The notes under the pieces are model-generated. The model did no database searches and had not been told where the DNA came from. It saw only the letters and a list, made by a program, of their open reading frames with translations. From a virus (Duplodnaviria; Caudoviricetes), in the IMG/VR virus record IMGVR_UViG_3300038424_000095, positions 1 through 60,648 of that record: 60,648 nt of DNA. One strand, written 5' to 3'. Each line of letters opens with the position of its first letter. Within the stretch, counting starts at the first letter, position 1. This document shows, in pieces, positions 5,479-52,226 of the stretch. Both the position numbers and the translations under genes were made by a program.

Positions 5479-5547
5479 CCCTTGACGATGCAGGTTGAAC
5501 AGTTTTACGATAGCTCCATACTCAATTCAGAGAATGGAGGCTATTCA

Positions 5548-8059: not shown

Positions 8060-8062
8060 GGA

Positions 8063-8275
8063 TCACCTGCCCATGTGTATCGGCGCGGTGAGTATGCTTC
8101 CCACACCAAGCATGGAGAAAAGAAAGTAAAATAGGATGATGAGCACGATCACTGCCGCGGCGACTATCACCCATGTCTTGTACGGTGCAGGGACGTGATG
8201 GTTTGCCACCCACACTATCAACGCAAGGATGCAGAACAGGACTAACAGAAATATGAACAGACTTAGAATAGACAT
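8063..8275 (-). CDS. Small two-TM membrane protein (possible holin)
   Basis: Two hydrophobic helices; AAGGAGG RBS; lysis region. Confidence 0.65.
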   Translation of the reverse strand: MSILSLFIFLLVLFCILALIVWVANHHVPAPYKTWVIVAAAVIVLIILFYFLFSMLGVGSILTAPIHMGR

Positions 8276-8288
8276 GCTTACCTCCTTG

Positions 8289-11883: not shown

Positions 11884-12360
11884 ATGTCTAACCAATACGT
11901 TATCACACCCAAACAACCAATCAAAGAAAGATTTGAAAATCTTATTTCCATGGAACCAACTACAGGATGTTGGTTGTGGATGGGGAGATGGGGCAAAACT
12001 GGGCTGTATGGACAATTCAAAATAGGGAGAAAAAACTGCAAAGCCCACCGAGTCGCATACGAGTTGTACGTTGAACCCATTGCTGAAGGGAAGTGTGTTC
12101 TTCACCATTGCGATACGCCGCCATGCTGCAACCCTAAGCATTTGTTCCTTGGCACTTCGAAAGACAACGTACATGACTGTATTAAAAAAGGAAGAAAACC
12201 AATAGGAGTAAATGCCTCTGGTGTAAAAATCACCGAGGAACAAGTAAGAGCGATACGGAAGGATACCGATTCTGAACACGTCATGGGATTGAAATACGGA
12301 ATTGCTGGATCTCATGCTGGAAGAATAAGAAGAGCGCAAGTGTGGAAGCATATTCAATAG
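11884..12360 (+). CDS. HNH homing endonuclease, counter-oriented in the late operon
   Basis: GCWLWMG...AHRVAY...VLHHCDTPPCCNPKHLFLGT..DN; C-terminal HTH-like region; GGAGG RBS. Confidence 0.9.
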   Translation: MSNQYVITPKQPIKERFENLISMEPTTGCWLWMGRWGKTGLYGQFKIGRKNCKAHRVAYELYVEPIAEGKCVLHHCDTPPCCNPKHLFLGTSKDNVHDCIKKGRKPIGVNASGVKITEEQVRAIRKDTDSEHVMGLKYGIAGSHAGRIRRAQVWKHIQ

Positions 12361-16314: not shown

Positions 16315-19300
16315 CTACATCGTTCTCAATATCTTCCGGTATTTTTCAATCTCGTCCTTTGTGAGCTCATTTTTCTCTACGGCATTGGAGAACTTATTGT
16401 AAAAGATAGGCTTGATCGCCTTCTTCTCTTCAGGTGTAGCCTTGTCTATCCCCGTAGCGAGCTGCTCGAGGGTGATCCTCTTGGCCGCAGCTACGGCAGG
16501 GGGCTCTTTCGCCTTCTCGTGGATACTCTCCATGTCGGAAGGAGTGAGTTTATGTTTCCGGATGGCCTGGCGGATCTGCGCGTTGGCCGTTGGGTCATTC
16601 TCCTTGACGGCCTGAGTGAGCTTGGACTTGAGCTTGCTCTTATCGGTCGAGGGGAATGATGGGCCCTCGAGGTTCTGGGCATACTTTTCAAAATCCGACA
16701 TGTATTTGTAGTTCGAGATACCCACCGATCCAAGAAGACCGTTGACGATCTTCCCGAGGGTGGTCTCGCCAGTGTTGCTCTTGAGAAGCCCCTGCCCCGG
16801 GATTGGGACCCACGATGAGAGGATGTCTTTCACGAGTTCCATCGTTCCCATCCGCTTCCCGTAGAAGTCCCTTCCGGTGGCAACCTCGACGAGTGGCCGA
16901 CCCCAGAGGGGATTGATCCGGTGATACCAGAAGCCCCGGGGGTCCGTCACGAGGTGCATCATATCGCCAACCACTGACCTTGGGGTGTACTCACGGCCGC
17001 CAACCATGACTGAGAAGGGCCTATTCCAGTGGGTCTTGTGGTCATCCCCGATGAGCATGTTCGTTACCTGTGCCGCTGTCGCCATGATGATCGCCCCGCG
17101 GAGAAGAGCCATGAACTGCTCCTTTCCCTTCGGTCTTGCGGCCTGGGCGAAGAACTTCAGGCGCGCCTCGAGGAAGTCAGGTGCAAGAAGTCCTATCCGG
17201 AGAACATCCTGCAGCGTGGGGTTCCTGCCGAGGTACTTGTAGTTGAGCTCACCGAAAGCGGCGTTTGCCTGCTTGGCCGCATTGTCGAGGAGCTGGTCAC
17301 GGGTGAACTTTCCCGAGGCCATGTCCTTCGCGTAATACTTCAGGGCCCGGCCTACGGCATGTTCGAACATGAGGGCCTTGAGGCGTGGGATGTAATCCTG
17401 AAAGAGCCACTCCTGATAGTGCTTAAGGGCATCCCCGACCAGAGGAATCCTGTTCCATAGACCGCCGGAAGCCATCCCTTCGGCGAATTCCTGCATGGCC
17501 TTCCCGCTGTAAAGCATGAGCCCGTGGTCGACGCCCTCGCGCAACAGAGGACGGGTGTCGAAGTCTATCTCGGGTGCCACAAAGGGGTTGACCTTATGAA
17601 AAACCGCGTGCTCCCCAAGGTGAAACTGATGGAAGGGCCCTATGAGGATCGTTCCCTTGATGAAGGCCCCACCATGGAGGGCCGTCCTGCCTGGCTGCCA
17701 GCCTCCGACCACTGGCACCTTCGCAGGGATTTCGAAGGTCTGGATCTTCGACTTTCCAAGAAGGGCATTAAGCCGGCCGAAGGCGTCCCGGTGAATTCTC
17801 ATGTTGCCCTGCATGAGAACGGGGTGTCCGTTCACGTCGTTGCCAAGCCATTTCCACTTGCGGAGGGCTGGATGGTCAAGAGGCCGATAAATCTCTCTGC
17901 CCTGATCGTCGTACCAGTCCTTGCCTTTTACATTCGGCTTGACTGCAAAGGCTGAATTGTCCCGTTCAACTATGTGGTCGCCAATGGAGGGGACCTTCTC
18001 GCCGAACATGGGCGTTGTCTTGTTTCCCTCTATGAATTTCTCGGCCTCGTCCTTCGAATCGAAGACCCTGAAGGCTCGGTCCTTGTCCCCGCGCATGACG
18101 GCGTAGGAGGTCTTCTGGATGGGTTCTCCCATGCCCCCGACCACTACCGTAGGTCTGCCGTCGGCCTCAGTGGATGCCATCAATTCCTTGAGGGCCTGGC
18201 GGGCCAGCATTGCTTCACGGATCGATCGCTCATGGGCGACCACTTGATAGCCTATCCTCTTGTCCGTGGGGTCATAGCCAAGCTTCTCGCCTTCGTGGTA
18301 ATTCGCCCATATCCGGTGAAGGGCTTCCCGGGGATTCGTCTTAAAGACCCCCGCATTAATCTGAGAGATAATCTTCTTCCCGGCCTTCTCCGGCTTGTCC
18401 TTCCACTGGTGTCGGACGTAGTTCTCGACATAGTCGATCTCGAGACCGGAATCGTTCGCGGCCTGCCAGGTATCCTGCATATCTTGGGAGCACTTTTCTG
18501 CCCAGGCGTGTTCTTCCGGGGTGAGCTTCATTGCATCAAGGTAGCCTTGTTTGTAAGGCGCCTTGGAATCATCGGCCCAGGCCTGAAGGGTGGCGTTGTC
18601 CCCGCCAGCTTCGATGTAGTTGCTGATGGCCACCTGCCTCTTCTCGGGGATCTCCGCATTGATCTGCTTGGCCAGCTTTGTGAGTTGCCATTCAAGGCGC
18701 TGGAGAGCTCCGGTGTATCGCCCGATGATGCGCTTACTTTCCGTGCTAACCGGAGGTTTCTTGTAGGCTTCCTTGAGGTCGTTGAGTGCCGTCTTGACCG
18801 GTTCGATGACAGGGGAGAAGAAGGTTTTTGGTCTCTCCGGTCCCTTCTCCGCCTCACGCTCTTTCCCGATATTGTCGAGGAAGTCCTGGAGGAGAGGAGG
18901 AAGGTCCTTGTCTTTGAGGACCACCTCGCCGCGCTCATTGGCGAGAGGGGATTCTGCATAGGCTTTCTTGGCTGCCTCGAATACCTTCTTCATTGAGAAC
19001 ATGAACCGTTTGTAGAGGTCCCCGAGGACTTCCTTCATCCGGTCCAGGAAGTCTTTCCAGGTCCTGGCCCCTTCCTGGTAGACGTGGGTGGCAATCTTTT
19101 CGAGGTGCGGATAGGCGGCCTTTGCGTCGTTACCTGCCTCCTTGATCGCATCAAGGCTCTCCTGGATGCTGAAACGGGGCTGCCCCTTATAGAGGACATC
19201 CTGCTTCATGGAGGGGGTGATATCGAGGGAGTGGACGGCAGTGAGTTTTTTCTCAGGTACGCCTTCCGCGACTTCAAGACCCAATATCTCGGCGAGGTCT

Positions 19301-22300
19301 TGGCTTCCATCTTCGTTCATCGCTTCGATGAGAGACTTGCCCCGGTCCATGACATGAAGAACCGATTCCGACGCGCGAGTAATTGCCACGCGTTCTATGG
19401 AGTACATGAGCTTTTCGCCAGTAATCGGACTAACCTTCGTGTTCCCGTATCCCCTGGAGAGCTTGTAGACTTTCTCCAAATCCTCTCGGGTCACTTCGGG
19501 GCGTCCAGTCATATCGGAGGTATCGTGATAGGTGACGGGTGCCCACCCTTCTGACGTGTCGACCTTCGTCTCCCCGACCTTCGCTCCCCACTGTTTGGCA
19601 TACTTGTTCATGAAGGCAGGGAGCATGGTATCGTAGAAGCCCTTCATGCCCTCGCCGCCGACTTTTAGGTCGAGACCGGAAAGGGATTTCAGCTTCATCC
19701 CGTCTTCGTCCATAACGGACTTGCCTTCACTGGCGGCTATCTTGTCGGCTATTTCCTTGCCGAAGAGGTCGGAGACTCTCTTGATGTCGACATTGTCCTC
19801 GTGGAGAACCACGTCGCCGTCTTTTATTGCTCTTACCCAATACTGATCATCCCCGTAGTCGTCGTACTGAATTCTGTCGATTTGCTTGGAGAGATCATAC
19901 CGTTCTGCCTGCTGCTCGCCTGTTGTGAAGGCTATCCGATCATACCCATTCTCCGAGGCCCAGCGTAGCATCCGCTTCATGACGAGTTCCGGCCAGGTCT
20001 TTGAGAAGGGGGCGGGGGGGACAGTCTGTGCGGCATAAAGATTATTTCCCGTCTGCTCTACATTCTCCCGTTTTGGCCCAGAGGCATAGAGATGGCCTTC
20101 TTCATCTAGGGCCATGAACATTTTGGTTCCTATCGGGCGTCCGCTTATCTCTGCAGCCTCTTCGCTATCAATGGTGTACTCTTCTATTCTGAGTGGCTTT
20201 GTGTAGCCCTTCTTCTTGCCCTCCTGGTGCCAGTCGCTCTGCACTTCTTCGATGAAGAGGACTTTCTTACCGTCAGCGTCTACCCGATCATTGAAACGGA
20301 CGTGGGCCAGGACGTTGGGTTCGTCCCAATGAGGTGAGGCGTACTTGCCTTCATAAATGTTACTTTTCTGAAGCCTTCCCTGTTCTGCCCATAGTCTCTG
20401 TTCCTCTGCGCCTACTTCTGATGCGGGTAGATTTCGAATCTCTTCTAGTCTTGCCCTTATTTCAGTGAGACGGCCCTCCTTGCTCTTTACGCCGGTGTCT
20501 TCTTTGCTTGGCAGCGTAAACAGCATCTCCCGGTAGTTCTCGCCCATGGGAAGGGTGTAGGCGGAAAACTTGGTGGGCGACTGCTTTGTTTCGTTCCTAT
20601 CCTCGTAAGCCGCCCTCAATTCTTTTGCCAAAGGCTCTAACGTACTGCTGAGTTCGTTTGGTGTCCTATCTCCTCTTGCGATGTCTAGGGCGGTATCGCG
20701 CGCTCCGCTATCTGTAAAATGCTCATTCTGGGCTTGCCTAATGAAAGCCTGTTCTGCTTTTTGGAGTCGTTCCTGTCCTTCTCCCCCCTTCACCACTTCC
20801 TTCATCTGCACCTGGTTCTCTTTGAGGAAGTCCGCGATCTCGCCCTTCGTGACCTTGCCCGTCCTGCCATCAAGCCAAGGAACCAGTCCCGACCACTTCA
20901 GTTCGTCCGCCTTGTACTCGCCCTTGTTCGCCCACGATTCAATGAGGGTTCGATAGCTCTCGGGCGTGCCCGTGCCGGGGAGCTTGGCGTCGAGGACTCG
21001 GGACATTTTGGAGTAGAAGGTGGGAGCGATGTCCTTCGCACCTGCGTTAAACACAGGCGGTCCTTTTGATCCCGTCCTGCCACCTGTCTTCTTGTATTCA
21101 ATGAGAGCCTTGTCTACCGCGCTCTTTACGGCTTTTGGATCGGTGGTCATGCTTTCAAGTTCACGACCGGCAGCGAACTGAGCTATCAAATCGCCCATGA
21201 CTCTTGTTCTCTGCGATTCCAACATACCAGTGCCTTCGTAGTCCGCCTGGAGTTTTTTCTTATAGATGTCGAGGTTTCTAAGATAGGGCTTTACTTCTTC
21301 CAAAAGTGGTTCATAAATGTCCGGCCTGCTATGTTGTAGAGTATGCATGATCTCATGCTGTGCCGTTGCCGCGACATCACGGGCGTTAGTGTTGAGATAG
21401 AGGACTGTCGGTTCTTGAGGAAGAGTGAATCCGCCTATCTTTATGGCCGATTCCGAGCCATCGAAAAAGTATGCATCAATGCCGTACGATTTCGCATCGG
21501 TAGCTATTTTTCGGTGTTCTGCGGTGAGTTCGACGGGGATTTTGACGTGATCCTGGACGAATCCCTCAAGATGCGTCCCCAAAATCTCCTGGACTTTTTT
21601 GATTGCAGAGCTGTATCGTTCGGATAGTAACGTATTCCGCTCTGTGACGTCAGGCAGATTATTCTCGGTTCTTCCTTCATTACCCTCCTCCTCTATACTG
21701 AATGTTGGCGGTTCCTTGCGTCTCGGCTTCAGCCTCTCCCCTATCTGTTCGGCGGTCTGCTTCTCCTCTCCGAGAGCAAGGCGGCCACCTCTGACTTCTG
21801 GTTCGCTAAAGGTAAGTTGGTGGATAGGCTGGTTGCCGGCGAGAACTTGCTTGACTTCTTCTTCTGATTTTGATACTCTTTCTTTGTTATGCCTAATCTC
21901 CTTTGTAGTACTTGTGGAACCGTAATTAACCGCGCCCCGTGCTTGATCAGAGGAAGCAAGACTGGATTCTTCTTCTGTTCCCGGTTGTGCAAAACTACTT
22001 TTTTCAACCACAAGATCAGGATGGATTGCCTCACTTGCGGCAAGGGGTTCTACGTTTCTCCCTCTACCCTCGATAATGGAAGAGGGAGGTTCTGTAGTAA
22101 AACCTGCTATGCGATTAATCAAGCTACTGGCCGTATTAATTCCAAGGGATACCGTTTTATCAGGGTTGACGGTAAGAGCGTTGCCGAGCACAGAATCGTC
22201 ATGGAACGTCATCTTGGTAGGCGACTTCACAGAAGTGAGGTGATCCACCACATTGACGGGAACAGACTCAATAACGAAATCTCTAACCTTCGGATCATGA

Positions 22301-24771
22301 AGTGCATTGATCACAGCGCCCATCATAATTCGTTGGCTTGGGACATCGAGACCGCCAAAGCCCTTTTGAAGGAAGGTGCTACTTTGCGAGAGGTCTCTGA
22401 TGTTCTGCACGTCTGCGGGACCAGTATTGGAGCTGCCTTGAGACGTAGAGGCGTTACCCTCCGTCTCTTGAGAGGATACAAGCGCACTAGCGGGTAGCTT
22501 CGCCTCTGAGGGGCCGCCAGTCGTTTTTTGGGGTGTGGTGGGGATGGTAGGCTTAGGGGCACCCGCCGGCTCCTCTTCCGCTGGCTTCTGGCTGGCCTCC
22601 TTTATGCCTGCTTCGATTGGAGCCGTGGGTTCCCCTAAAGGCTGCATGGCAGGAGTCAACGGGGCCATCCCGAGGGGTGCCATCGGAGCCTCCACCGGCA
22701 CCGTCAACGGCAGTTCCGCTATCCGGTCGATGATCTCCTTGTTGGCGACATCGGGCGGGAGCCCCTTGCTTCCCACGTCCGCGATGATAGCCTCTGGTGA
22801 GCTGTTCCTAATAGCCTCGTGGGCCTGGATGAACTGGTCGAGGGCGGTAACGGATGGAGCATGAGCCTGGGGACTCGCGGCGTACTGGTCGCGTACTGCC
22901 CGGATATGATCTAGGGTAGTCTCCCCTCTTTCAAGCCCCCTGGTGGCTTGGTCAAAGAATGAAGGGGGAAGAGGGGTGCCGCCCACCGCTGAAGGACCGG
23001 CAGCCGGAGAAGGAGGAGTCGCGGGAGGCGGGCCCTCTTCCGAAGTTGGTCTGGTTTCTGGCATTCCTGGTGTCTGTCTCGGATATGTCGAAACGCCTTC
23101 AACCGCCCCCTTAAGTTCGAAGGGAACAACCTTAGGCTGTCCTGCCGCTGCAACCTGAGTGTCGCTGTAAGGTGGAACGTGAATGGCACTCTTTATCTTT
23201 CTCCACCAGGGACGGTCGGCCACCGTAACGGCCTTTTCAACGGGCATCTCTATCCATGTACCGCCGATGAGGTCTTGGCGCATCTGTGGGCCTGAGCGTC
23301 CAAGTGCCCCGTAGAGTTCTTTTTCTTCGGCGGTAGCCTCTTGTCCGGCCCCGAGGATGTCGTGAATCTTGGCGGGGTCAAGAAATACTCTCCGAGGCAT
23401 GTTGTACTGCTCGAAGGTCTTTGTCGTTGCGGCTTCAAAGGCTTTCTGCGATCCTCCATGCACCTTGCCAGCCGCCCATATCTGACCCATGAAGTCAACG
23501 GCATCAAGGACCGAAGCCTGCCATCCCTCGGCATCATTGATGTCAGCAAGACCACGGCCTCCTCCAAAAGTGTAGGGCTTGCCGCTGATCTTAGATGCGG
23601 CGAAGTTCTCAGCTTCTGCGGCGCCCATGAAGGTCCCAAAACCAGCCGCACCCTTCAGGACATCCTTTGCCATCTGAATCTTCGAGGGAGCACCACCGAG
23701 AATCTCTTTCGCTATGCCGGATCTTGCCAAGTCAAATGCTGTGTTCACTGCACCGGCCGCTTCCTCCGCCGACATACCTGCCTGGACTATGCCGGCCCCT
23801 TCCCGGGCCGCTCCTGCCAAAGCTGAAATACCAGTTCCTGCGCCATATATAGCCGCTGTCGGTGCCATGAGAGGCAGCCAGAACGCCATCATGTACGGGT
23901 TGTTTATGATCTCTTTCCCCGTGGGCGTACCGCGGAGTCCGAGTTGCTTGGTGATCGCGTCGAAGTTGTCATAGATAGCATCAGAGGGGACCTGGACATG
24001 GTTAGCCTGGAGAATCTTCGAGACTTCTGCCGCCCTGTCAGCAACCGGCCAGGAAGGTTCTGCCCCTTTAGATACATAGAGATTGAAAGAGTTCACATCA
24101 TCGTGGTATTGCTTGGCCTTCTGATTAAAGGTCTCTACCTTTGTGTTGAAGGCATCTACCGATGTCTGAGAAGTCCTGTCTACCTTCTCCTGAGATGCTT
24201 TGAGGTCATCGTAAAGAGCCTGGACCTGCTTGCCCTGAATCTCAAGGGTATTACTTTTGGCGGAGAGGTCTTTCCCCCTTGCGAGAAACTCTCCTTCTCT
24301 GGGTGTCGCCTCAGGTGCTTCTGGCGCCCTCATGGTAAAAGGCACTCTCGCCATGTCCACATGCTCTGCGGGGTGCGCGAGTTCCTCCACTATTCGGTGA
24401 TCTGGAGGAGGAGCATTCGCCTCTTCTTCGAAGCGGTGTGCGATGTTGAGGGCAGCCTGAGCTTTCACAGGATCAGGATGGTGAACGACAGTCCCTATAC
24501 TTGGCTTTCCTAACCAGTCCGTTGTGATGAAAGGCTTCATAGTGCTGATTACATCAGGTTCAGGTTGACCGAGGCGGGCCGGGCGGACAGCAGCAAGTTC
24601 CTCTTCGGTAGCGGCAGGAGGAAGGGCTATTTTGACCGGAGCCTTGACGACAGGCGGTTTCTCTGCCGCCGCGAACTCCTCGTCGCTTATGACCCTGAAG
24701 CCCTTACTGACAGGTTGCTCTTGCTTCTGCGCCTGTTCAATCTCGTCATCGCTGATTACAACGTAGGGCAT
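16315..24771 (-). CDS. Giant 2818-aa polyvalent internal virion/ejection protein
   Basis: Last gene of the ejection module; HEIMH zincin motif; conserved phage domain AHVRFNDR...LFIEEVQSDWHQ...GYDRIAFT...GFYD; helical C-terminal region. Confidence 0.85.
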   Translation of the reverse strand: MPYVVISDDEIEQAQKQEQPVSKGFRVISDEEFAAAEKPPVVKAPVKIALPPAATEEELAAVRPARLGQPEPDVISTMKPFITTDWLGKPSIGTVVHHPDPVKAQAALNIAHRFEEEANAPPPDHRIVEELAHPAEHVDMARVPFTMRAPEAPEATPREGEFLARGKDLSAKSNTLEIQGKQVQALYDDLKASQEKVDRTSQTSVDAFNTKVETFNQKAKQYHDDVNSFNLYVSKGAEPSWPVADRAAEVSKILQANHVQVPSDAIYDNFDAITKQLGLRGTPTGKEIINNPYMMAFWLPLMAPTAAIYGAGTGISALAGAAREGAGIVQAGMSAEEAAGAVNTAFDLARSGIAKEILGGAPSKIQMAKDVLKGAAGFGTFMGAAEAENFAASKISGKPYTFGGGRGLADINDAEGWQASVLDAVDFMGQIWAAGKVHGGSQKAFEAATTKTFEQYNMPRRVFLDPAKIHDILGAGQEATAEEKELYGALGRSGPQMRQDLIGGTWIEMPVEKAVTVADRPWWRKIKSAIHVPPYSDTQVAAAGQPKVVPFELKGAVEGVSTYPRQTPGMPETRPTSEEGPPPATPPSPAAGPSAVGGTPLPPSFFDQATRGLERGETTLDHIRAVRDQYAASPQAHAPSVTALDQFIQAHEAIRNSSPEAIIADVGSKGLPPDVANKEIIDRIAELPLTVPVEAPMAPLGMAPLTPAMQPLGEPTAPIEAGIKEASQKPAEEEPAGAPKPTIPTTPQKTTGGPSEAKLPASALVSSQETEGNASTSQGSSNTGPADVQNIRDLSQSSTFLQKGFGGLDVPSQRIMMGAVINALHDPKVRDFVIESVPVNVVDHLTSVKSPTKMTFHDDSVLGNALTVNPDKTVSLGINTASSLINRIAGFTTEPPSSIIEGRGRNVEPLAASEAIHPDLVVEKSSFAQPGTEEESSLASSDQARGAVNYGSTSTTKEIRHNKERVSKSEEEVKQVLAGNQPIHQLTFSEPEVRGGRLALGEEKQTAEQIGERLKPRRKEPPTFSIEEEGNEGRTENNLPDVTERNTLLSERYSSAIKKVQEILGTHLEGFVQDHVKIPVELTAEHRKIATDAKSYGIDAYFFDGSESAIKIGGFTLPQEPTVLYLNTNARDVAATAQHEIMHTLQHSRPDIYEPLLEEVKPYLRNLDIYKKKLQADYEGTGMLESQRTRVMGDLIAQFAAGRELESMTTDPKAVKSAVDKALIEYKKTGGRTGSKGPPVFNAGAKDIAPTFYSKMSRVLDAKLPGTGTPESYRTLIESWANKGEYKADELKWSGLVPWLDGRTGKVTKGEIADFLKENQVQMKEVVKGGEGQERLQKAEQAFIRQAQNEHFTDSGARDTALDIARGDRTPNELSSTLEPLAKELRAAYEDRNETKQSPTKFSAYTLPMGENYREMLFTLPSKEDTGVKSKEGRLTEIRARLEEIRNLPASEVGAEEQRLWAEQGRLQKSNIYEGKYASPHWDEPNVLAHVRFNDRVDADGKKVLFIEEVQSDWHQEGKKKGYTKPLRIEEYTIDSEEAAEISGRPIGTKMFMALDEEGHLYASGPKRENVEQTGNNLYAAQTVPPAPFSKTWPELVMKRMLRWASENGYDRIAFTTGEQQAERYDLSKQIDRIQYDDYGDDQYWVRAIKDGDVVLHEDNVDIKRVSDLFGKEIADKIAASEGKSVMDEDGMKLKSLSGLDLKVGGEGMKGFYDTMLPAFMNKYAKQWGAKVGETKVDTSEGWAPVTYHDTSDMTGRPEVTREDLEKVYKLSRGYGNTKVSPITGEKLMYSIERVAITRASESVLHVMDRGKSLIEAMNEDGSQDLAEILGLEVAEGVPEKKLTAVHSLDITPSMKQDVLYKGQPRFSIQESLDAIKEAGNDAKAAYPHLEKIATHVYQEGARTWKDFLDRMKEVLGDLYKRFMFSMKKVFEAAKKAYAESPLANERGEVVLKDKDLPPLLQDFLDNIGKEREAEKGPERPKTFFSPVIEPVKTALNDLKEAYKKPPVSTESKRIIGRYTGALQRLEWQLTKLAKQINAEIPEKRQVAISNYIEAGGDNATLQAWADDSKAPYKQGYLDAMKLTPEEHAWAEKCSQDMQDTWQAANDSGLEIDYVENYVRHQWKDKPEKAGKKIISQINAGVFKTNPREALHRIWANYHEGEKLGYDPTDKRIGYQVVAHERSIREAMLARQALKELMASTEADGRPTVVVGGMGEPIQKTSYAVMRGDKDRAFRVFDSKDEAEKFIEGNKTTPMFGEKVPSIGDHIVERDNSAFAVKPNVKGKDWYDDQGREIYRPLDHPALRKWKWLGNDVNGHPVLMQGNMRIHRDAFGRLNALLGKSKIQTFEIPAKVPVVGGWQPGRTALHGGAFIKGTILIGPFHQFHLGEHAVFHKVNPFVAPEIDFDTRPLLREGVDHGLMLYSGKAMQEFAEGMASGGLWNRIPLVGDALKHYQEWLFQDYIPRLKALMFEHAVGRALKYYAKDMASGKFTRDQLLDNAAKQANAAFGELNYKYLGRNPTLQDVLRIGLLAPDFLEARLKFFAQAARPKGKEQFMALLRGAIIMATAAQVTNMLIGDDHKTHWNRPFSVMVGGREYTPRSVVGDMMHLVTDPRGFWYHRINPLWGRPLVEVATGRDFYGKRMGTMELVKDILSSWVPIPGQGLLKSNTGETTLGKIVNGLLGSVGISNYKYMSDFEKYAQNLEGPSFPSTDKSKLKSKLTQAVKENDPTANAQIRQAIRKHKLTPSDMESIHEKAKEPPAVAAAKRITLEQLATGIDKATPEEKKAIKPIFYNKFSNAVEKNELTKDEIEKYRKILRTM
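21889..22497 (+). CDS. HNH endonuclease with two Cys4 Zn modules and C-terminal HTH, nested antisense within the giant gene
   Basis: CSTCG...FCSRLC, CLTCGK...FCSKTC, KGYRFI...AEHRIVMERHLGRRL..SEVIHHIDGNRLNNEISNL, TLREVSDVLHVCGTSI. Confidence 0.85.
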   Translation: MPNLLCSTCGTVINRAPCLIRGSKTGFFFCSRLCKTTFFNHKIRMDCLTCGKGFYVSPSTLDNGRGRFCSKTCYAINQATGRINSKGYRFIRVDGKSVAEHRIVMERHLGRRLHRSEVIHHIDGNRLNNEISNLRIMKCIDHSAHHNSLAWDIETAKALLKEGATLREVSDVLHVCGTSIGAALRRRGVTLRLLRGYKRTSG

Positions 24772-25637
24772 TATGGCTCCCTAAAGGACCATGAAACGCA
24801 ATTGCAAAGGCCGCCCATCATAGAAAGATACCGACAGTCGATCATCACCACAGCATGATTTGGGAAGAGGTTGTCGACTATCTGTCTCGCTCTTGCATCC
24901 TTCGGCAATCCAAAAGCCGGAAGAAGAATCACGTTTTCAGTTTGTAGCCAGTTGCAGAAATACCCCCATCCAGGAGAGTACGCATCCGCGTCTGGCCAAA
25001 TCTGTCTAAAGGCCGCCTCTGGCATGTCCCAGTCCCATGAGTCAAAAGCGTACGTGAAACGAAACGTGTTGAAATTGGCCTTCTCAAGGGTCTTTTCGAG
25101 GTCTCGCTGATATTTCCTGAAGCGATCATCCTTGTCGAAAACGCAAGAGTAGTCATTCACGATGAGCGTATTGTGGTTCACAAATCGGCAAATGCCGTCG
25201 CTGTGCCCGAGTTCATCGCCGGGTTCCACAGGAATGAGGATCACTGGACATCCGAGGGCTTGTTCAAGAGCTTCTTGGGATCCAGCGCCGTTGTCATGGA
25301 TGAACTTCTCGGTAACGATTGCCTTGCCATATCCCATGACGCAGTTGCCGCCATCGAGAATCAATGGAGACTCCAGAAGGTTGGGCACCCACCGCCAGCA
25401 TTCCTCGGCAACCTTGAGTTGAGGCCATCTATCCCAGTCGTTTGGTGTCTTGGCATACTGAAACTTCACGAAATGATCCCCTACCTGAACCGGCATGTAG
25501 TCTCTTGACCAAACATTTCGAGTTCCGTTGAACGTGCGCACCTTCACGCCATAGGCTTCAAGGTTAAGTTTGGCAGCCCAGAACACGTCCTTATGGTTGT
25601 GAGCGAACCATTCGTTGAAGTAAACGACGTCTTTCAT
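24771..25637 (-). CDS. Agmatine deiminase / peptidyl-arginine deiminase family protein
   Basis: WSRDYMP, LDGGN, GHSDGICRF, YFCNWL, GGLCNCVS (Asp/His/Cys residues present). Confidence 0.88.
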   Translation of the reverse strand: MKDVVYFNEWFAHNHKDVFWAAKLNLEAYGVKVRTFNGTRNVWSRDYMPVQVGDHFVKFQYAKTPNDWDRWPQLKVAEECWRWVPNLLESPLILDGGNCVMGYGKAIVTEKFIHDNGAGSQEALEQALGCPVILIPVEPGDELGHSDGICRFVNHNTLIVNDYSCVFDKDDRFRKYQRDLEKTLEKANFNTFRFTYAFDSWDWDMPEAAFRQIWPDADAYSPGWGYFCNWLQTENVILLPAFGLPKDARARQIVDNLFPNHAVVMIDCRYLSMMGGLCNCVSWSFREP

Positions 25638-26371
25638 GCTTGACTCATCCTCTCAACTTTCACGATAGGGTCAATCCCACCTTCGACATGGTACACCTTC
25701 CCGTCATTGGGAATGAGTGATTGGAACTTGATCCTATTCTTTGCAACAAGGGGAATGATCAGATCTGCTTGGCTCCCTTGCCTGACAAGGCTGATTTTCT
25801 CCCCTTGGGTATAGAAGTTTCCCGAGGGACCAAACATGCAGACAACATCAATTTCGAAGTCCCCGGTCAGAAGCAGGTGCATATGTTGATTGATTCTCGG
25901 ACAAACGATCTTGCATTTCATTCGCTCGTTATAAAGGGCGTACTGCATCGCATTGATGTTCACCTTGATTCGGTCAAGGATAGCTTTCTCTATCGGGCGC
26001 ATGGAGAGATTCGTTACCTTCAGGGAAGGCATTTTTTCATAGAAGAGGAAACCGCTCACGGGCGCGTGCTGAACATGAATGTCGATACATGTCATGAATA
26101 TCCCGATGACGAGACAGTCTTCTTTAACTTCTTCCCGCAGAAGGGTGTTCACGCTGTACGTCCCGCCCTTCACATTGATGATCTCCTCGTTCGGCCCGAC
26201 TACCTTGTTGTAGATAACAAAGCCATCGGCCGGCGCGTATACCACATTCATGTCATAGTAGATCGGGCGTATCGGATCCCTGGACAATTCCCGTTCAAGG
26301 ATCTGCCGCGGCGGCATCTCCGTGAGTTTCTTTGTTTCCGGCATCTGAAGAAAGGCGTTAAGCTCTTTCAT
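25634..26371 (-). CDS. Phosphatidylserine-decarboxylase-family (pyruvoyl) decarboxylase, apparently soluble
   Basis: APADG, IGIFMT..DIHVQHAPVSG, NERM, RQGSQADL (Gly-Ser autocleavage site); ATGA-coupled start at 26371. Confidence 0.85.
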   Translation of the reverse strand: MKELNAFLQMPETKKLTEMPPRQILERELSRDPIRPIYYDMNVVYAPADGFVIYNKVVGPNEEIINVKGGTYSVNTLLREEVKEDCLVIGIFMTCIDIHVQHAPVSGFLFYEKMPSLKVTNLSMRPIEKAILDRIKVNINAMQYALYNERMKCKIVCPRINQHMHLLLTGDFEIDVVCMFGPSGNFYTQGEKISLVRQGSQADLIIPLVAKNRIKFQSLIPNDGKVYHVEGGIDPIVKVERMSQA

Positions 26372-27312
26372 GACGGGTACGGTACTCCGTTTAAAGGCAA
26401 ACAACAGCAACTCAAAGCTGCCCCGGAAGCCCCTATCTCGCTCAAGTCTATGAAAATTGGTGTCAATCCTGCGTCCATGACGATCTTTTCAAACTCTTCG
26501 TTCTTCCTCTTCTCCTTCTCATAATCCTCATCACTACGCTTCAATTCCGATATGTCCGTCATGGTGTAGACGATTGACCCAATGCGCTGGTTATTGGTCA
26601 CAGACATTTGCGCCGCTTCCTTGCTTACCGGGATGATTTCCGCGACTTTCTCTATCTCTTTGACCGTGGCCCTGTCCTGGCCATCGGTCGCGAACATGAC
26701 TTTGTCCTTCGAAAGAGGGAATATTGAACAATCGAGGTGATAGCGCTTCTGATCTCGTTCTTCGATCTTGATTACCCGGGCATCGAACTTCTGCGCTATC
26801 CAGTCGAGGGCCTCGGGTACGCTGCGCTGTCCATACCCTCCGAAGTAGATGTTATCCCGAAGCCAAAGGAACTCGGCCTTACCCTCGAAGAAGTACGGAG
26901 GGGTAAACTGCTTGTAGCCTGCGATGTCGAGGAACTTACTGAGTTCCTTCTCTTCACCCGGTCGCCCCTCTGCTTTGAATTTGGCGAGCACGAATGTCTT
27001 GTCCAGGTGCGGAAGGCATACCCCGGCATTGGAGATATACATCTGGTCCTGAAGGCCCCTCTTAGGCGGAAGGAGATAGACGAAAGCGTCCTGAGCAAAG
27101 AGGCCGGCCATCTCAAAAAACTGCGCCATGGCCTTATCGACATTGATCTTTCGTTCCTTCTCAGGAAGTTTTTTCATAAAGACGTTGTTCGCGATGTCGG
27201 CCCGGAGGTACTCCGGCGGACAGAGGAGCAGTTTCAGGTATGCATCCTGTGTCTGAACCTTCAACGACTCCTGGCCCTTCAGCTCTTCATCCCCTATCAC
27301 CCTGTAAGCCAT
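26368..27312 (-). CDS. Amidinotransferase/DDAH/arginine-dihydrolase-like (pentein) hydrolase
   Basis: LLCPPEY, GLQDQMYISNAG, R.GE, FEG, YHLDCSIFPL, SGAALSC. Confidence 0.88.
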   Translation of the reverse strand: MAYRVIGDEELKGQESLKVQTQDAYLKLLLCPPEYLRADIANNVFMKKLPEKERKINVDKAMAQFFEMAGLFAQDAFVYLLPPKRGLQDQMYISNAGVCLPHLDKTFVLAKFKAEGRPGEEKELSKFLDIAGYKQFTPPYFFEGKAEFLWLRDNIYFGGYGQRSVPEALDWIAQKFDARVIKIEERDQKRYHLDCSIFPLSKDKVMFATDGQDRATVKEIEKVAEIIPVSKEAAQMSVTNNQRIGSIVYTMTDISELKRSDEDYEKEKRKNEEFEKIVMDAGLTPIFIDLSEIGASGAALSCCCLPLNGVPYPS

Positions 27313-46305: not shown

Positions 46306-48531
46306 CTATGTCTCCTTATCATTGTCGCTCTTTACCCCGTTAATCTGTCCCTTCTGTATGTCCACAGCCACCTTGGCGGCATCTACCCTTCTCTGCTTGT
46401 GGGCGTCGTGGATGTCCGCCACGGCCTCGGCTCTCTTGATGACGAGGTTCTCCTTGTCGAGCTCAATTCCGGCCGCTATCTTCGCCTGGGCCATCTTCTC
46501 GGTGTTGATCTGCTCTGCTATCAGGGCCGTCTCGGCCCGTGCCTTCTTGGCTTGCTCGCCCTTCAGCATGGCATCGGCCTGTTCCTTCACGTTCGTCTGT
46601 GCCTGTGGCTGTTGTCCCGTGAGCGCCCGTTGAAGTATCTGCATGAACGGCGGTATCTTGCCGGCCTTCTTCGCACGCTCGAACATCTTCGGGTCCATCT
46701 TGGCAAGCGTGCCAATGGCGTCTATCAATCCAGGGGGACATCCTATCTCTTTAAGCTCATTGAGGAGGCTCGACAGCGGGCCTTGTTTCATTCTCTGGAT
46801 GATCTGCTGCTTCCCTGAGTAGTCGAGCTTCTCGAGGAGGGCTTCTTTATCAATCGCTCCCATCTTCGCAAGTTCCAGGGCTTCCTGACGCTGCTGAACC
46901 TTGGAGACGGGCAACGTCGAACCGGTGACGAAGGTAAGATTCGAGGGGATGATAAGGTCCTTCCCGCGGATTGCTTTGCTCACCTTGTCGCCGTTCGAAT
47001 TCGTGTAGGCAAGCCACCTTTCCGTTGCGCCTTCCCCTTCGTTGTAGAAGTTCTGTGCGCAGCTCATATACATCCTGCCCGTCTCACGAATGAGATAGCC
47101 GTAATTGCGGGTCTTGCCCCGCATCATAGTCGACGCCCGCTCCATAAGGGCAGCAAGGGCCTTGAACGCAAGCTGGCCATTCGTATTCTGTGCCTGGTCG
47201 AGTTCGAACGTGCCGGCCACGAGAAAGAAGAGGTCCTTGAACAGGGTGATGTACGCGCTGAGGTCCTGGTTCATCGGGGGCTGTTCAAGCCACCTTATCG
47301 CCTGGGCCTGTTCCGCGTTCGAGGGGTTGACTACCGTGGCTTCATTCGTAAATTCATCGTTCGACACCCCGGACGTGATCGGGTTCATGACTTTCATCCT
47401 GGCGCCGATGTCTTTGTAGTAGATCAACTGACTGATGATTTTGTCGAGTTCACGGACGAGTTCTTCTACCTGCTGCAAGTCGCTCTCTCCCCATGCCGAA
47501 GAGGTGTCGTCAATCGAGTTGGCCAACGCGACGGGAAAACGGTCCCACAGGTATGTCTGTCTGGCAAGGTCTTCTTCAAGGGCAGGGCTGATATTCGGGT
47601 TGCTCTTGTCCTGGAGGACAACCTTGCCTGCGGAGCACACCTCGACGTAGCGGATATTGCCCTTGTACAGATCGTTGTCTTCCTTATCCTTCCGGTAGTC
47701 ATGGCAGTAACACCGCACCAGGAGGGTCTTGTCGTCCTCTCCGTCGAAGAGCATCCCGCCGAACTTCGCGTAGACGGTCTTGATTGTGTTGAGGATCTTG
47801 ATCATCATGGTCGGTCCGCCCTCGCGGGTAACATCCGAGTTGACGTCCCGCCGCTCGTCGCCCATCTCTTTGAGGACTTCGCCGTCAGGCTTGATGTCCT
47901 TAGCCTTGTCTGGGTAGAGGCGCCTGAGACTGCGCACGCTCATGGGCTGCCAGACAAGAAAGGCCTCGCATCCCTGCAGGTCCAGGGGATCGCAGAGTTC
48001 CAGTGGCCACCATCCGAAATGATAGGGGTCGAGGACGTGCGTTTCTACCTCGCCGTAGCCCTTTTTGAGACGCCGGTTGAAGCATACCTCTACGCCTGTG
48101 ATGCCGTAAATCTCTCCGGTCCGGACTGCCCGGGCGTACCGATGCTGCTGCTCGGTCTCGTTCCACCAGTGCTCGGACTGATGAAGCTGGTCTTCGAGAA
48201 CGTCTTCCTGTTCAGGCTGCAACTGCCCCTCGGCGTGGACGTTGAAGGTCGGGTCGTTGTCGGTGAGGACGTTGACTGTGCGCTGAATGTGTGTGTGGGT
48301 GAGGTTGATGGACGCGAGCTTGATGTTGCTGACGTTCTTTGCCTGCCAGTGGAGATTCTTGACGAGTTTGTAGAACTTCATCCAGAGGTCGTGCAAGCCT
48401 AACCTTTTCTTCTCCTCGACGATCTTCCGCCACATCTCCATAACGGCCTCGCCCACAGCCTTGGGGTCTGACTTGGCAGGGAGCAGCTCGTAGTCTTCGG
48501 GAGAATCTTTTATTGCTTCGGGCTCAGGCAC
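46306..48531 (-). CDS. Portal protein (P22-like)
   Basis: 741 aa; position between terminase and scaffold; P22-type helical layout with C-terminal coiled-coil barrel. Confidence 0.85.
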   Translation of the reverse strand: MPEPEAIKDSPEDYELLPAKSDPKAVGEAVMEMWRKIVEEKKRLGLHDLWMKFYKLVKNLHWQAKNVSNIKLASINLTHTHIQRTVNVLTDNDPTFNVHAEGQLQPEQEDVLEDQLHQSEHWWNETEQQHRYARAVRTGEIYGITGVEVCFNRRLKKGYGEVETHVLDPYHFGWWPLELCDPLDLQGCEAFLVWQPMSVRSLRRLYPDKAKDIKPDGEVLKEMGDERRDVNSDVTREGGPTMMIKILNTIKTVYAKFGGMLFDGEDDKTLLVRCYCHDYRKDKEDNDLYKGNIRYVEVCSAGKVVLQDKSNPNISPALEEDLARQTYLWDRFPVALANSIDDTSSAWGESDLQQVEELVRELDKIISQLIYYKDIGARMKVMNPITSGVSNDEFTNEATVVNPSNAEQAQAIRWLEQPPMNQDLSAYITLFKDLFFLVAGTFELDQAQNTNGQLAFKALAALMERASTMMRGKTRNYGYLIRETGRMYMSCAQNFYNEGEGATERWLAYTNSNGDKVSKAIRGKDLIIPSNLTFVTGSTLPVSKVQQRQEALELAKMGAIDKEALLEKLDYSGKQQIIQRMKQGPLSSLLNELKEIGCPPGLIDAIGTLAKMDPKMFERAKKAGKIPPFMQILQRALTGQQPQAQTNVKEQADAMLKGEQAKKARAETALIAEQINTEKMAQAKIAAGIELDKENLVIKRAEAVADIHDAHKQRRVDAAKVAVDIQKGQINGVKSDNDKET

Positions 48532-49968: not shown

Positions 49969-50156
49969 ACTGTCGTTACTCCATATTCCTGAAACTGCTT
50001 GCGCTTAGCTTCCATAGCGAGCTCGATGTCGGCCTGGTCACGCCAGCTTTGCCAAGGGACCCTATGATGTTTGATACACGAAAGCCATTGAAAGCTGCGC
50101 CCGCCATACTGCCAAACCTGAACAACTTTCTTGCACTCAGGGCAATATGCCTTCAC
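49965..50156 (-). CDS. Small Zn-ribbon hypothetical protein
   Basis: CPEC...CIKH; ATGA-coupled to terL. Confidence 0.5.
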   Translation of the reverse strand: MKAYCPECKKVVQVWQYGGRSFQWLSCIKHHRVPWQSWRDQADIELAMEAKRKQFQEYGVTTV

Positions 50157-51802
50157 TCAATCCCTCCGCACGGGTCAAATATATCCCCTTCCCCCTCCAT
50201 CTGCCCGAAGACCTTGCGCAGGTAATTGTCTGTGCGCATCTGCTCGGTCAGGTGTATCCGCTCGGTTTGATTCCCCGGCTGGCCGGTGACGGCGTCGATG
50301 ATGCGGTCGGAGAGAGGGCGCCGATGCTCTGGGTCCTTGTTAATCTGCACGATCTTGTCGAGGAGGAGTCCTATCAGCGCGAAGCTGTCGACCTGGTCCT
50401 TCGTGCGTGCCTTCGGAAATCGGCGCAGCTCGTATTCGAAGTCTGCCAGCCATGGGGGCTCAAACGCTCCCCGCTTTGGCAGGAGGATAACTCCCTGCTT
50501 TGCGCGACCCTGGATGGATCTGGCCCGGGCAACCTTGTCCTTATCAGGCCTAAATTCCTCAAGATTGAGGTAAACACCGGCTTCTTGCATGGCCTTTTTC
50601 AGGAAGGGCCCTATCGTGCGTTCTATGTTCTCTACCTCGATGGCGAACATGAGGGGCTTCCAGGTCCTCTGTACGTCGATGAGCTCCTCGATGATGGACA
50701 AGGCGTCCCAATGGCCGCGTCTTACGTGAACGACCGGCAGGCGCTTCAGCATGTCTATTCCTGCCACCACAATAGCGGTATAGGCTGCCTTCTCTCGTTC
50801 GGATATAGCCAGGTCAGCAGCGGCGTAAAGCGTGAGCCTGTCGGGGATTACCTCATAGCGGGGAAACCAGTTGAGACTGAAAAAAGCATTTTCGTCTTCA
50901 GGGGTTGGATCAAGGAGGTATTGGCAGGAGTAGATGTAATCCCCGACTGTCGGGTCCTTTCTGATTTCTTCTTGTCGATTGAGGCTAAACTGCTCTGGCC
51001 ACAGTGCTACGGCACCATCGGATGACGGCGGTACGGCCTTACCGGTCATGAAATGATAGCTTGCCGGCCGCTTGTACGTCCGGTACATTCCGGACTTTTC
51101 CATGTCGCAGTGCAGGTCTCCGTCATCGTAGATCGTCCCTGCGATCTGAATATTTCCCCCAGTCTGAAGGATCGATGAACGCATGAGACCGTAGGCATCG
51201 CGGTTCTTGTCCATCATCTCCCTGGAGGTACAGGTCTCGGGCGTCACGATGTCATCACACTTAATCCTCGGAAAATGGAGTCCAGTCGGCTGGTTCTCAA
51301 GGCTGGTTGCCAAAAACGAAGGCTCCTGCCGACCGGTGTGATAGGGAAGAATGAATTCCTCGTCAGTCCACTTAGGTGATTCCTTTTGAGGGTTTGCCCA
51401 TATCTTGTCAGGAAACAACTCTCGGAGCCTTCTGTTGCTCTCAAAGTGCCATTTGACGGCACGCATCTTCTTAACACTTCGCTTAAGGGCGTCACATACG
51501 ATAGCGATAGGCTCTGAGGGGACCTTGAGGTATTGTCTGATGCCATCGGCAATAGTGAAAATTTGGGTCTTGCAGTGGCCGCGGGGGAGGAGAAACAACG
51601 ACAGGTTGGTGTCCTTCTGGACTTCGGCAGCAAACTCCTGGTGTACGGGCCCGGTGAGCCACCAGTACCCCAGGATGAATTTCGCAAAGAAATAGAGGTC
51701 ATTAAGCCCCCACTCCCTGATCAGATTCGCCTGGTCTTCCGAGGATAAGCTTTGTAAGGTCCTCAACAATGGCTCGTACTTCAGGTCCACAGGTAAGCTC
51801 AT
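50153..51802 (-). CDS. terL: Terminase large subunit
   Basis: Walker A-like LPRGHCKT, TGLH...KCDDIV Walker B, GTIY, nuclease AADLA...DQVDS; start uncertain. Confidence 0.93.
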   Translation of the reverse strand: MSLPVDLKYEPLLRTLQSLSSEDQANLIREWGLNDLYFFAKFILGYWWLTGPVHQEFAAEVQKDTNLSLFLLPRGHCKTQIFTIADGIRQYLKVPSEPIAIVCDALKRSVKKMRAVKWHFESNRRLRELFPDKIWANPQKESPKWTDEEFILPYHTGRQEPSFLATSLENQPTGLHFPRIKCDDIVTPETCTSREMMDKNRDAYGLMRSSILQTGGNIQIAGTIYDDGDLHCDMEKSGMYRTYKRPASYHFMTGKAVPPSSDGAVALWPEQFSLNRQEEIRKDPTVGDYIYSCQYLLDPTPEDENAFFSLNWFPRYEVIPDRLTLYAAADLAISEREKAAYTAIVVAGIDMLKRLPVVHVRRGHWDALSIIEELIDVQRTWKPLMFAIEVENIERTIGPFLKKAMQEAGVYLNLEEFRPDKDKVARARSIQGRAKQGVILLPKRGAFEPPWLADFEYELRRFPKARTKDQVDSFALIGLLLDKIVQINKDPEHRRPLSDRIIDAVTGQPGNQTERIHLTEQMRTDNYLRKVFGQMEGEGDIFDPCGGIE

Positions 51803-52226
51803 GCTGTATCGGTTCTCCCCCTTTTCCAGTGACCTGAACATTCTTCGCCGGTTCATCCCCTCTCAATTCCACCAGGCGCCACAGGGCGTCCAACTTATCG
51901 TAGAGTTCAAACTCGACGGTCGATGTTTTAAACATCTGCTCGCCGTCCTTGCTTTCGGTGATTCGTGTGTGTTCCTTCACCTTTTTGATAGCGGCCAGTT
52001 TACGCTTACCGCCTTTCTGGGCCTTGATTTCCTCAAAGGTATTAGCGCATATCTCCCCTCCTTCGGCAACCGTCAGGTAGTCATCGATGCGGGAGAACGC
52101 CACAGAGCAAAGCTCTTCGGCAATGCGTTTCAGGGTTCCCCCAGCTTTCTCGATGGTCTTGATTCGTTCAGCCACGACGATATCTGCTGCAATAGAAGGT
52201 GCTGAATCAGAAATAGAAATGCTCAC
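51702..52226 (-). CDS. terS: Terminase small subunit
   Basis: EELCSVAFSRIDDY...AIKKVK...FELYDKLDAL...VTGKGGEPIQ. Confidence 0.85.
   Translation of the reverse strand: MSISISDSAPSIAADIVVAERIKTIEKAGGTLKRIAEELCSVAFSRIDDYLTVAEGGEICANTFEEIKAQKGGKRKLAAIKKVKEHTRITESKDGEQMFKTSTVEFELYDKLDALWRLVELRGDEPAKNVQVTGKGGEPIQHELTCGPEVRAIVEDLTKLILGRPGESDQGVGA

Follow-up and report, generated by a model that had tools for sequence, protein, structure and literature searches.

A conserved gene pair for an ArgZ-like pentein and a decarboxylase of the phosphatidylserine decarboxylase fold in phages and bacteria, with a possible role in converting arginine to a diamine

Organisation of the cassette in the viral contig

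The subject of this analysis is a three-gene cassette in a viral contig (Duplodnaviria; Caudoviricetes), IMG/VR record IMGVR_UViG_3300038424_000095, which was analysed over its whole length of 60,648 bases (positions 1 to 60,648; estimated completeness 88%) and is referred to here as the window. The cassette is located on the minus strand and encodes, from upstream to downstream, a stand-alone pentein of 314 amino acids (aa) resembling the arginine dihydrolase ArgZ (26368..27312), a soluble and presumably pyruvoyl-dependent decarboxylase of 245 aa with the phosphatidylserine decarboxylase (PSD) fold (25634..26371), and a short deiminase-like enzyme of 288 aa belonging to the AguA/PAD_porph family (24771..25637). 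Comparative analysis revealed that the conserved unit is the pair of pentein and decarboxylase rather than the trio, that this pair is a widespread bacterial operon common to phages and not a phage invention, and that the AguA-like gene is a phage-only accessory to it.

As read from the sequence, the pentein and decarboxylase genes overlap at an ATGA junction, as do the decarboxylase and AguA-like genes, and the latter is joined through TAATG to an open reading frame (ORF) of 2818 aa (16315..24771, minus strand), indicative of translational coupling of four consecutive minus-strand ORFs. This arrangement had been described in a first-pass annotation of the DNA, as had the motifs of the three enzymes, all of which were found, and catalytic residues that appeared intact and were shown to be conserved across homologues of all three. 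In the ORF list, the decarboxylase starts at a TTG codon at position 26410 (25634..26410, 258 aa); the alternative ATG at 26371, yielding 245 aa, was adopted, since this methionine is the first residue of each of the 24 aligned homologues. The maximum Kyte–Doolittle value in a 19-residue window ranged from 1.24 to 1.44 across the three enzymes, none of which reached 1.6, in agreement with the earlier statement that the decarboxylase has no membrane anchor. At the DNA level, a search of phage records with the cassette returned zero matches.

Conservation of the pentein-decarboxylase pair

Homologues of the decarboxylase were detected in 45 phage records (39 from Campylobacter phages and 6 from Bacteroides phages) and those of the pentein in 48 (40 Campylobacter, 6 Bacteroides, 1 Ralstonia and 1 Xanthomonas), with the AguA-like enzyme being present in seven (6 Bacteroides and 1 uncultured). 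A large protein collection contained 50, 267 and 20 relatives of the decarboxylase, the pentein and the AguA-like enzyme, respectively. An alignment-based scan of viral contigs identified 19 loci, a single-protein scan of viral contigs having yielded zero confirmed loci. The pentein gene lies beside the decarboxylase gene in 17 of these 19 loci, and the other two (L002 and L003) have the decarboxylase at a contig edge; a single ORF separates the two genes in locus L014.

For bacteria, one genome per prokaryotic species was scanned, and the best 80 of 141 confirmed matches were considered. The pentein was encoded on the same strand and at most 600 bases from the decarboxylase in 74 of these 80 loci (73 downstream, 1 upstream), and, of the remaining six, two stop at a contig edge. 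The AguA-like gene was found beside the pair in seven of the 19 viral loci (L002-L007 and L017) and in none of the 80 bacterial loci. The three-gene unit proposed in the first-pass annotation, which had named a survey of gene neighbourhoods as a test, is thus upheld for the pentein and decarboxylase and not for the trio. The genes flanking the pair differ widely between loci, suggesting that the pair moves as a unit, and the conservation of catalytic residues together with the presence of the pair in ~90 independent loci shows that the association is not due to chance.

Sequence and predicted structure of the pentein

The pentein did not match any Pfam family and was assigned to phrog_12759 (1.4e-42), a PHROG family of unknown function. 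NCBIfam models of DDAH (dimethylarginine dimethylaminohydrolase), arginine dihydrolase and ArgZ were matched at 9e-27 to 3e-23, all with scores far below the respective cut-offs; the score against NF052232, which represents ArgZ/AgrE-type arginine dihydrolases, was 85.3 bits against a cut-off of 450. A profile built from 33 pentein sequences recovered AgrE and ArgZ from the PDB at 3e-34 to 4e-31, followed by DDAH at 0.0026. The AlphaFold2 model (pLDDT, the predicted local distance difference test, of 92.0) was matched by Foldseek to the N-terminal domain of ArgZ (E 1.7e-23; template modelling score 0.89-0.90 by target length), and then to DDAH and amidinotransferases. Among solved relatives, the pentein is therefore nearest to the arginine dihydrolases ArgZ and AgrE.

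The motifs FEG, YHLD and LSC are located at residues 142, 191 and 300, respectively. Conservation among the 33 sequences and alignment to ArgZ highlighted D89, N95, R117, E143, R163, H192, D194 and C302 as candidate functional residues, of which E143 is invariant, and H192, C302, R117 and R163 reach 90% conservation or more. N95 was aligned by HMMER with Asn71 of ArgZ, which was mutated in the intermediate-trapping structure 6JUZ. The catalytic Cys, His and Glu of an ArgZ-type pentein fold (C302, H192 and E143) are thus accompanied by the Asn71 equivalent. The order of the putative active-site residues is Asp, Arg, Glu, Arg, His-x-Asp, Cys (D89, R117, E143, R163, H192-x-D194, C302), which is the order described for arginine deiminase (ADI) and DDAH in the available part of PMC11659421, where the substrate carboxylate is held by two arginines. 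Both R117 and R163 are common to the pentein clade and ArgZ, for which the substrate-contact residues were deduced from those ADI and DDAH descriptions. The location of R117 and R163 at the carboxylate-binding places of ADI and DDAH would favour an L-arginine-like substrate over agmatine or N-carbamoylputrescine. Of the two activities previously suggested for the pentein, that of an arginine dihydrolase agrees with its nearest relatives, and the two arginines lean against hydrolysis of N-carbamoylputrescine by a carbamoyl hydrolase.

The cyanobacterial enzymes ArgZ (Sll1336) and AgrE (Alr4995) (PDB 6JUY-6JV1 and 6LRF-6LRH) share the pentein fold, the catalytic Cys and His and the Asn71 equivalent with the phage protein, and both conserved arginines are found in ArgZ (ERQGEE, YGFRS) and in the phage pentein (GRPGEE, YGQRS). 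The phage pentein is only ~23% identical to ArgZ/AgrE, is without their C-terminal ornithine cyclodeaminase-like part and carries an insertion of ~30 residues ahead of the catalytic Cys. Furthermore, its partner is a decarboxylase, whereas ArgZ and AgrE belong to the ornithine-ammonia cycle.

Sequence and predicted structure of the decarboxylase

The decarboxylase belongs to family PF02666 (1.5e-16; 61.1 bits against a cut-off of 22, and 60.4 bits in the genome search), with the motifs PADG, DIH and QGSQ at residues 47, 97 and 198, respectively. Alignment of 24 sequences revealed that D49 (of PADG), H99 (of DIH), G199, S200 and Q201 are invariant. The autoprocessing residues of PF02666 (Asp, His and Gly-Ser) are accordingly present, with self-cleavage predicted between G199 and S200; the cleavage-site motif is GSQ rather than the canonical GST. 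None of the 15 NCBIfam PSD models (cut-offs spanning 111-377 bits) was matched above its cut-off, the best score being 54.2 bits against 230, and the protein was assigned to phrog_12670, a second PHROG family of unknown function.

Escherichia coli PSD (6L06, 7CNW) was the only solved protein to match the decarboxylase in sequence or fold (AlphaFold2 model pLDDT 86.6). The sequence match is restricted to residues 28-110 of the decarboxylase and 69-155 of the E. coli enzyme (19% identity), and the Asp, His and Ser autoprocessing residues align. In contrast to E. coli PSD, the phage enzyme is without a hydrophobic segment: its maximum Kyte–Doolittle value is 1.44, its 30 N-terminal residues are charged, and ~40 N-terminal residues of E. 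coli PSD have no counterpart, indicating that the membrane-binding N-terminal region of lipid-acting PSDs is not represented.

A hidden Markov model of the clade scored 270-328 bits for bacterial operon copies compared with 21-38 bits for canonical PSDs of the same genomes, both proteins being present in four of the five bacterial genomes checked. Operon copies carry GSQ, while GST was found at the expected place in three of four canonical PSD ORFs. By these sequence measures, the clade is a paralogue separate from canonical PSD. A clade search of 1.84 billion representative proteins produced 2446 matches at E 0.001, 588 at 1e-10 and 124 at 1e-30, and the nearest Atlas clusters of the decarboxylase are 93-96% viral. 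Among the representative proteins P0200, P0216 and P0233 from this search, one decarboxylase copy is split by an intein that bears a LAGLIDADG endonuclease. Two ParB/Srx-like DGxHR motifs were noted by eye in P0200.

Judged by its residues, the pair looks catalytically intact. A complex prediction for the pentein and the decarboxylase returned a score of 0.00 against a mark of 0.32, which counts neither for nor against binding.

The AguA-like enzyme

The third enzyme matched PF04371 with 73.9 bits (cut-off 25; 1.8e-20). This match spans positions 71-318 of the 321-position profile, the initial ~70 being absent, and the score for the AguA equivalog TIGR03380 was 33.9 bits against a cut-off of 381.8. 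A PHROGs search did not assign it to any family. The motifs RD, GHSD and NC are located at residues 45, 144 and 279, and W43, D46, D95, H145, D147 and C280 are invariant in all 19 AguA-like sequences, including the Asp, His and Cys catalytic columns of AguA. The protein differs from AguA in an insertion at about residues 205-225 and in its GGLCNC end, the Cys motif of AguA-type enzymes being of a different form. To judge from these residues, the enzyme looks active, though short and diverged from AguA.

Genomic setting of the pair in phages

In the window, the cassette and the 2818-aa ORF are part of the late strand, downstream of the genes for the terminase large subunit (50153..51856, minus strand; phrog_38, 4.9e-63) and the portal (46306..48531, minus strand; phrog_156, 5.6e-17) and upstream of that for a beta-helix tailspike. 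Proximity to head and packaging genes was also observed elsewhere: the Gp23 capsid protein gene precedes the pair in L012-L016, a portal gene precedes it in L019, with a weak portal-like match (below the Pfam cut-off) in L020, and a terminase homologue is encoded upstream of the pair in L009-L011 and L019. In L017, the cassette is located beside an ORF of more than 1932 aa. No exporter genes were present in the maps of the phage loci. The portal of L019 (4031-6154; PF06381, 5e-92) carries a C-terminal inorganic pyrophosphatase-like domain (PF18823, 2.6e-18), and this fusion gene sits two genes upstream of the pair.

In Bacteroides phage DAC19, the pentein and decarboxylase genes are adjacent, and the AguA-like gene is located ~48 kb away. 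GenBank labels the homologues in Campylobacter phages as 'phosphatidylserine decarboxylase' and 'amidinotransferase'; annotations around the matches in Bacteroides phage DAC19, Ralstonia phage RsoM2USA and MT836602 were all 'hypothetical' or absent. The GenBank note on the PSD-like gene of Campylobacter phage NCTC12673 (L103, L104) records similarity to Saccharopolyspora SACE_0607 and to 'AF210249_12', the latter presumably from the bleomycin cluster of Streptomyces verticillus, whose products have amine tails.

In locus L018 (1-16657), the gene for a deoxyhypusine synthase (DHS) homologue (1e-40) precedes those for an intact pentein and then a PAD_porph protein of full length. According to the available part of PMC13625781, two agmatines are coupled by bacterial SpeY enzymes, and given this use of agmatine, the SpeY/DHS homologue would imply that the L018 phage needs an arginine decarboxylase. 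Besides a dCTP deaminase-like gene, the same locus contains a 7-deazaguanine-type set encoding GTP cyclohydrolase I, a radical SAM protein and DUF5591. A role in DNA hypermodification, considered because of this set, was dropped, as no such genes were found among 19 window proteins (Pfam) or in the other flank-scanned loci.

Genomic setting of the pair in bacteria

The bacterial loci came from, among others, Streptomyces, Saccharopolyspora, Nocardia, Xenorhabdus, Sulfurimonas, Candidatus Glomeribacter, Verrucomicrobiales, Acidobacteria, Gemmatimonadota and Planctomycetota. ORF clustering within ±8 kb identified a MATE exporter in 34 of the 80 loci and a fused MsbA-like ATP-binding cassette (ABC) exporter in 21 of the 80, a MATE or ABC exporter being the next gene in most bacterial maps. 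The MATE protein shows weak similarity to natural-product exporters.

Several neighbours relate to diamine metabolism. In Xenorhabdus, divergent genes encode an aminobutyraldehyde dehydrogenase (667 bits against a cut-off of 615), the 4-aminobutyrate transaminase GabT (827 against 724) and a GntR regulator, while a PotD/PotF-like binding protein is encoded next to the operon in Verrucomicrobiales. One Streptomyces copy of the decarboxylase without a pentein adjoins a non-ribosomal peptide synthetase (NRPS), which fits an amino-acid decarboxylase that supplies an amine. In a further Streptomyces sp. locus (L025, ~6949-8678), two PSD-like genes are found back to back beside a single pentein gene. 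An Rfam scan of eight bacterial loci detected only a tRNA, and no riboswitch was found upstream of the operon.

The lack of other arginine decarboxylases was tried as a discriminator and failed, since SpeA was present in four of the five genomes checked; in Candidatus Glomeribacter, one of these five, SpeA, agmatinase and AguA were all not found.

Relationship to known polyamine enzymes

Virus-encoded diamine synthesis is already known, and it is the folds that are unexpected here. Chlorovirus PBCV-1 encodes an arginine decarboxylase, an agmatine iminohydrolase, an N-carbamoylputrescine amidohydrolase and a homospermidine synthase, and phage polyamine enzymes are established, including pyruvoyl-dependent ornithine and arginine decarboxylases derived from SpeD (the available parts of PMC9992855 and, for the phage enzymes, also PMC10407285). 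As far as those sources describe them, these viral pathways resemble the predicted function of the cassette in that viral genes would produce a diamine from arginine or ornithine using a pyruvoyl cofactor recruited from another decarboxylase family. They differ in that the decarboxylase of the cassette has a PSD fold, compared with the S-adenosylmethionine decarboxylase (AdoMetDC) or alanine racemase folds of the known pathways, and in that the guanidino or ureido step would fall to an ArgZ-like pentein instead of a nitrilase-type amidohydrolase or agmatinase.

A closer precedent for the decarboxylase is Ao-ADC1 of Aspergillus oryzae (structures 9JER, 9JF5 and 9JFN), described in the available part of PMC12904898 as a PSD-family, pyruvoyl-dependent arginine decarboxylase. 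It combines a PF02666 fold with activity on a free basic amino acid and generates its pyruvoyl group by self-cleavage at a Gly-Ser bond, as is predicted for the phage enzyme. In contrast, Ao-ADC1 is larger (483 aa, compared with 245 aa), has a helical region at its N-terminus and carries a GGST motif, the phage decarboxylase having GSQ.

A description of the pentein-decarboxylase pair was not found in the literature searched, which excluded subscription papers and supplements. The words phosphatidylserine, amidinotransferase, dihydrolase and Campylobacter are absent from the main text of PMC9992855; PMC11360552, on ocean auxiliary genes, mentions psd and amidinotransferase in unrelated contexts only, and PMC7824862, on jumbo phages, contains nothing on these enzymes.

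Proposed pathway and alternative explanations

The close linkage of an arginine-type hydrolase to a soluble, amino-acid-type decarboxylase, together with the putrescine-related neighbours, supports a two-step conversion of arginine to a diamine. We consider the chances about even that the cassette represents a small-molecule pathway from L-arginine to a diamine, most probably putrescine, rather than a system that modifies lipids or proteins; its substrates, product, step order and purpose are inferred. In the favoured order, the pentein would hydrolyse the guanidino group of an alpha-amino acid, converting arginine to ornithine and possibly stopping at citrulline. The decarboxylase proenzyme would self-cleave at Gly199-Ser200 to form its pyruvoyl cofactor, and the mature enzyme would act on a free basic amino acid, decarboxylating ornithine to putrescine. 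The AguA-like deiminase may draw the agmatine pool of the host into N-carbamoylputrescine. Polyamines serve as counter-ions of packaged DNA. Being encoded by late-strand genes, the product would be made during DNA packaging, where it could supply counter-ions and support translation; late expression beside head and packaging genes in unrelated phages fits such a supply.

Within this explanation, the dihydrolase-first order is modestly favoured over arginine decarboxylation followed by agmatine hydrolysis: the former is favoured by the putative carboxylate-binding arginines of the pentein, the latter by locus L018 and the Ao-ADC1 precedent. A specific form of the latter had been put forward in the first-pass annotation: the PSD fold would serve for arginine decarboxylation, N-carbamoylputrescine would be produced by the AguA-like enzyme, and its carbamoyl group would be taken off by the pentein. 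Where only two genes form the module, the pentein would instead be an 'agmatine dihydrolase'. This would assign all three enzymes a role in a single line, and the second half-reaction of ArgZ-type enzymes, as we understand their chemistry and as PDB titles indicate, already hydrolyses a ureido group. Moreover, the only non-lipid PSD-family enzyme characterised in the available part of PMC12904898 is an arginine decarboxylase, and the SpeY/DHS homologue that accompanies a PAD_porph protein in L018 points to agmatine, the substrate of SpeY as given in the available part of PMC13625781. However, R117 and R163 are conserved in the clade and in ArgZ, yet neither agmatine nor N-carbamoylputrescine has a carboxylate, and the AguA-like gene is missing from 12 of the 19 viral and all 80 bacterial loci. 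This particular sequence of steps is regarded as unlikely and is counted as a minority order inside the preferred explanation.

Several observations weigh against an arginine-to-diamine pathway as such, or against its details. The enzyme activities are assigned from sequence and predicted structure, with all three proteins scoring far under the curated cut-offs of equivalog-level NCBIfam models, and the carboxylate-binding role proposed for R117 and R163 derives from motif order rather than superposition. Foldseek matched the decarboxylase model to E. coli PSD alone in the PDB (E 2.5e-05), and Ao-ADC1 was not recovered with the clade profile at E 0.01, so any function shared with that enzyme would be convergent within the family; for the earlier assignment of the PSD fold to an arginine decarboxylase, Ao-ADC1 is a biochemical and structural precedent. 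Under the favoured order, the AguA-like enzyme is left without a phage-encoded follow-up step. The pentein and decarboxylase genes of Campylobacter phage NCTC12673 are far apart and do not share a module, and the pentein that adjoins the decarboxylase in L018 is without the catalytic His and Cys. The Xenorhabdus and Latescibacterota genomes encode a full SpeA and an agmatinase besides the operon, and two Campylobacterota genomes encode SpeA (split over contig ends) and a canonical AguA, while the exporters suggest that the product of the bacterial operon may be secreted. Finally, two proteins from the clade search are predicted fusions of the decarboxylase, one to an Acb1 anti-CBASS domain (P0216, 390 aa; 3e-34), the other to a VapB-like and an ADP-ribosyltransferase exoenzyme domain (P0200, 1114 aa; 8e-26), and such fusions fit a role in conflict better than housekeeping metabolism. 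Both are metagenome gene predictions and could represent neighbours merged by gene calling. With respect to the putrescine pathway proposed earlier, polyamine-related genes do surround the pair (DHS and PAD_porph in L018, and the neighbours in Xenorhabdus and Verrucomicrobiales), and the pair itself is a widespread bacterial operon.

A different exported metabolite derived from arginine, such as agmatine, citrulline-derived N-carbamoylputrescine, or an amino or guanidino compound serving in signalling or as a building block of natural products, is improbable; the phage copy would then change host physiology instead of supplying counter-ions for packaging. The frequency of MATE and MsbA-like exporters in the bacterial loci, the weak resemblance of the former to natural-product exporters, the presence of the operon alongside complete canonical polyamine routes and the copy beside an NRPS all speak for it. 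Conversely, exporters are missing from the phage loci, the putrescine/GABA catabolic and PotD-like neighbours indicate ordinary diamines, and neither a riboswitch nor another ligand clue was found upstream in the eight loci scanned. Less probable still is a role in conflict, in which late-made enzymes, possibly packaged and delivered with the giant protein, would destroy or deplete an amino-acid-bearing molecule important for immunity or takeover of the host, such as free arginine or a putative arginine- or amino-acid-nucleotide immune signal, with the bacterial exporter operons as their source. Besides the two fusions, which with their large multidomain context it would explain, this view draws on the intein-bearing copy, the predominantly viral Atlas clusters, the coupling to the 2818-aa ORF in the window and the adjacent large ORF in L017. 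A chromosomal operon in many bacteria, often with an exporter in the locus, is hard to square with anti-defence, and virion packaging is a supposition; we know of no defence-signal chemistry that needs both a pentein and a decarboxylase.

The Pfam name and the GenBank labels of the Campylobacter phage homologues would suggest a true PSD for remodelling of the membrane lipids of the host, alongside penteins that act on their own, and the inclusion of peptidyl-arginine deiminase in the PAD_porph family would allow for penteins that deiminate arginines of host or virion proteins. Both are considered very improbable. No hydrophobic or N-terminal anchoring segment was found in the decarboxylase, every PSD equivalog scored far under its cut-off, the clade is distinct from the canonical PSD with which it coexists in four of five genomes, and it is closely linked to an arginine-type hydrolase in ~90 loci. 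For pyruvoyl decarboxylases, the alpha-amino acid moiety must be free, and this is not the case for residues inside a protein chain.

If the pair does produce putrescine from arginine, there would be one more non-orthologous route to this most basic of polyamines, combining the fold of a lipid enzyme with an arginine dihydrolase of cyanobacterial type and present in bacteria of many phyla as well as in phages of Campylobacter, Bacteroides and uncultured hosts. Such a route would provide a function for the PHROG families phrog_12759 and phrog_12670, correct the 'phosphatidylserine decarboxylase' and 'amidinotransferase' labels on Campylobacter phage genes, and be one more instance in which phages produce counter-ions for DNA while heads are assembled. 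Another lead comes from the predicted fusions to known counter-defence domains, and the bacterial exporter operon is itself a candidate pathway.

Other features of the window

The first-pass annotation had placed the cassette in an ejection module, joined to a giant virion gene; neither designation was confirmed. The 2818-aa ORF, which may encode a large virion or polyvalent protein, had no matches in Pfam and no sequence matches in the PDB, and a single weak PHROG match was obtained (phrog_7348, residues 1483-1633, 1.8e-09). In a tblastn search of phage records, it matched three records only, at 15-17% coverage each. Residues ~1250-1730 are 25-33% identical to proteins from phages of Dolichospermum and Pelagibacter and from a spring-water phage, and a zincin-like HExxH motif (HEIMH) was noted by eye. 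Within this gene, a plus-strand ORF of 202 aa (21889-22497) with Cys-rich and HNH-like motifs, also noted by eye, may represent either a homing endonuclease nested there or an antisense frame that is open by chance.

The window further contains a tyrosine integrase gene on the plus strand (5482-6699) and, on the minus strand, the gene for the beta-helix tailspike of 931 aa (12354-15149), both identified in the scan of window proteins. The tailspike gene is overlapped by a minus-strand ORF (14927-15865) with a Wzy_C (O-antigen ligase-like) match of 31.2 bits, just below the cut-off of 31.7. The combination of integrase, tailspike and Wzy_C ORF suggests that the phage is temperate, with possible O-antigen conversion.

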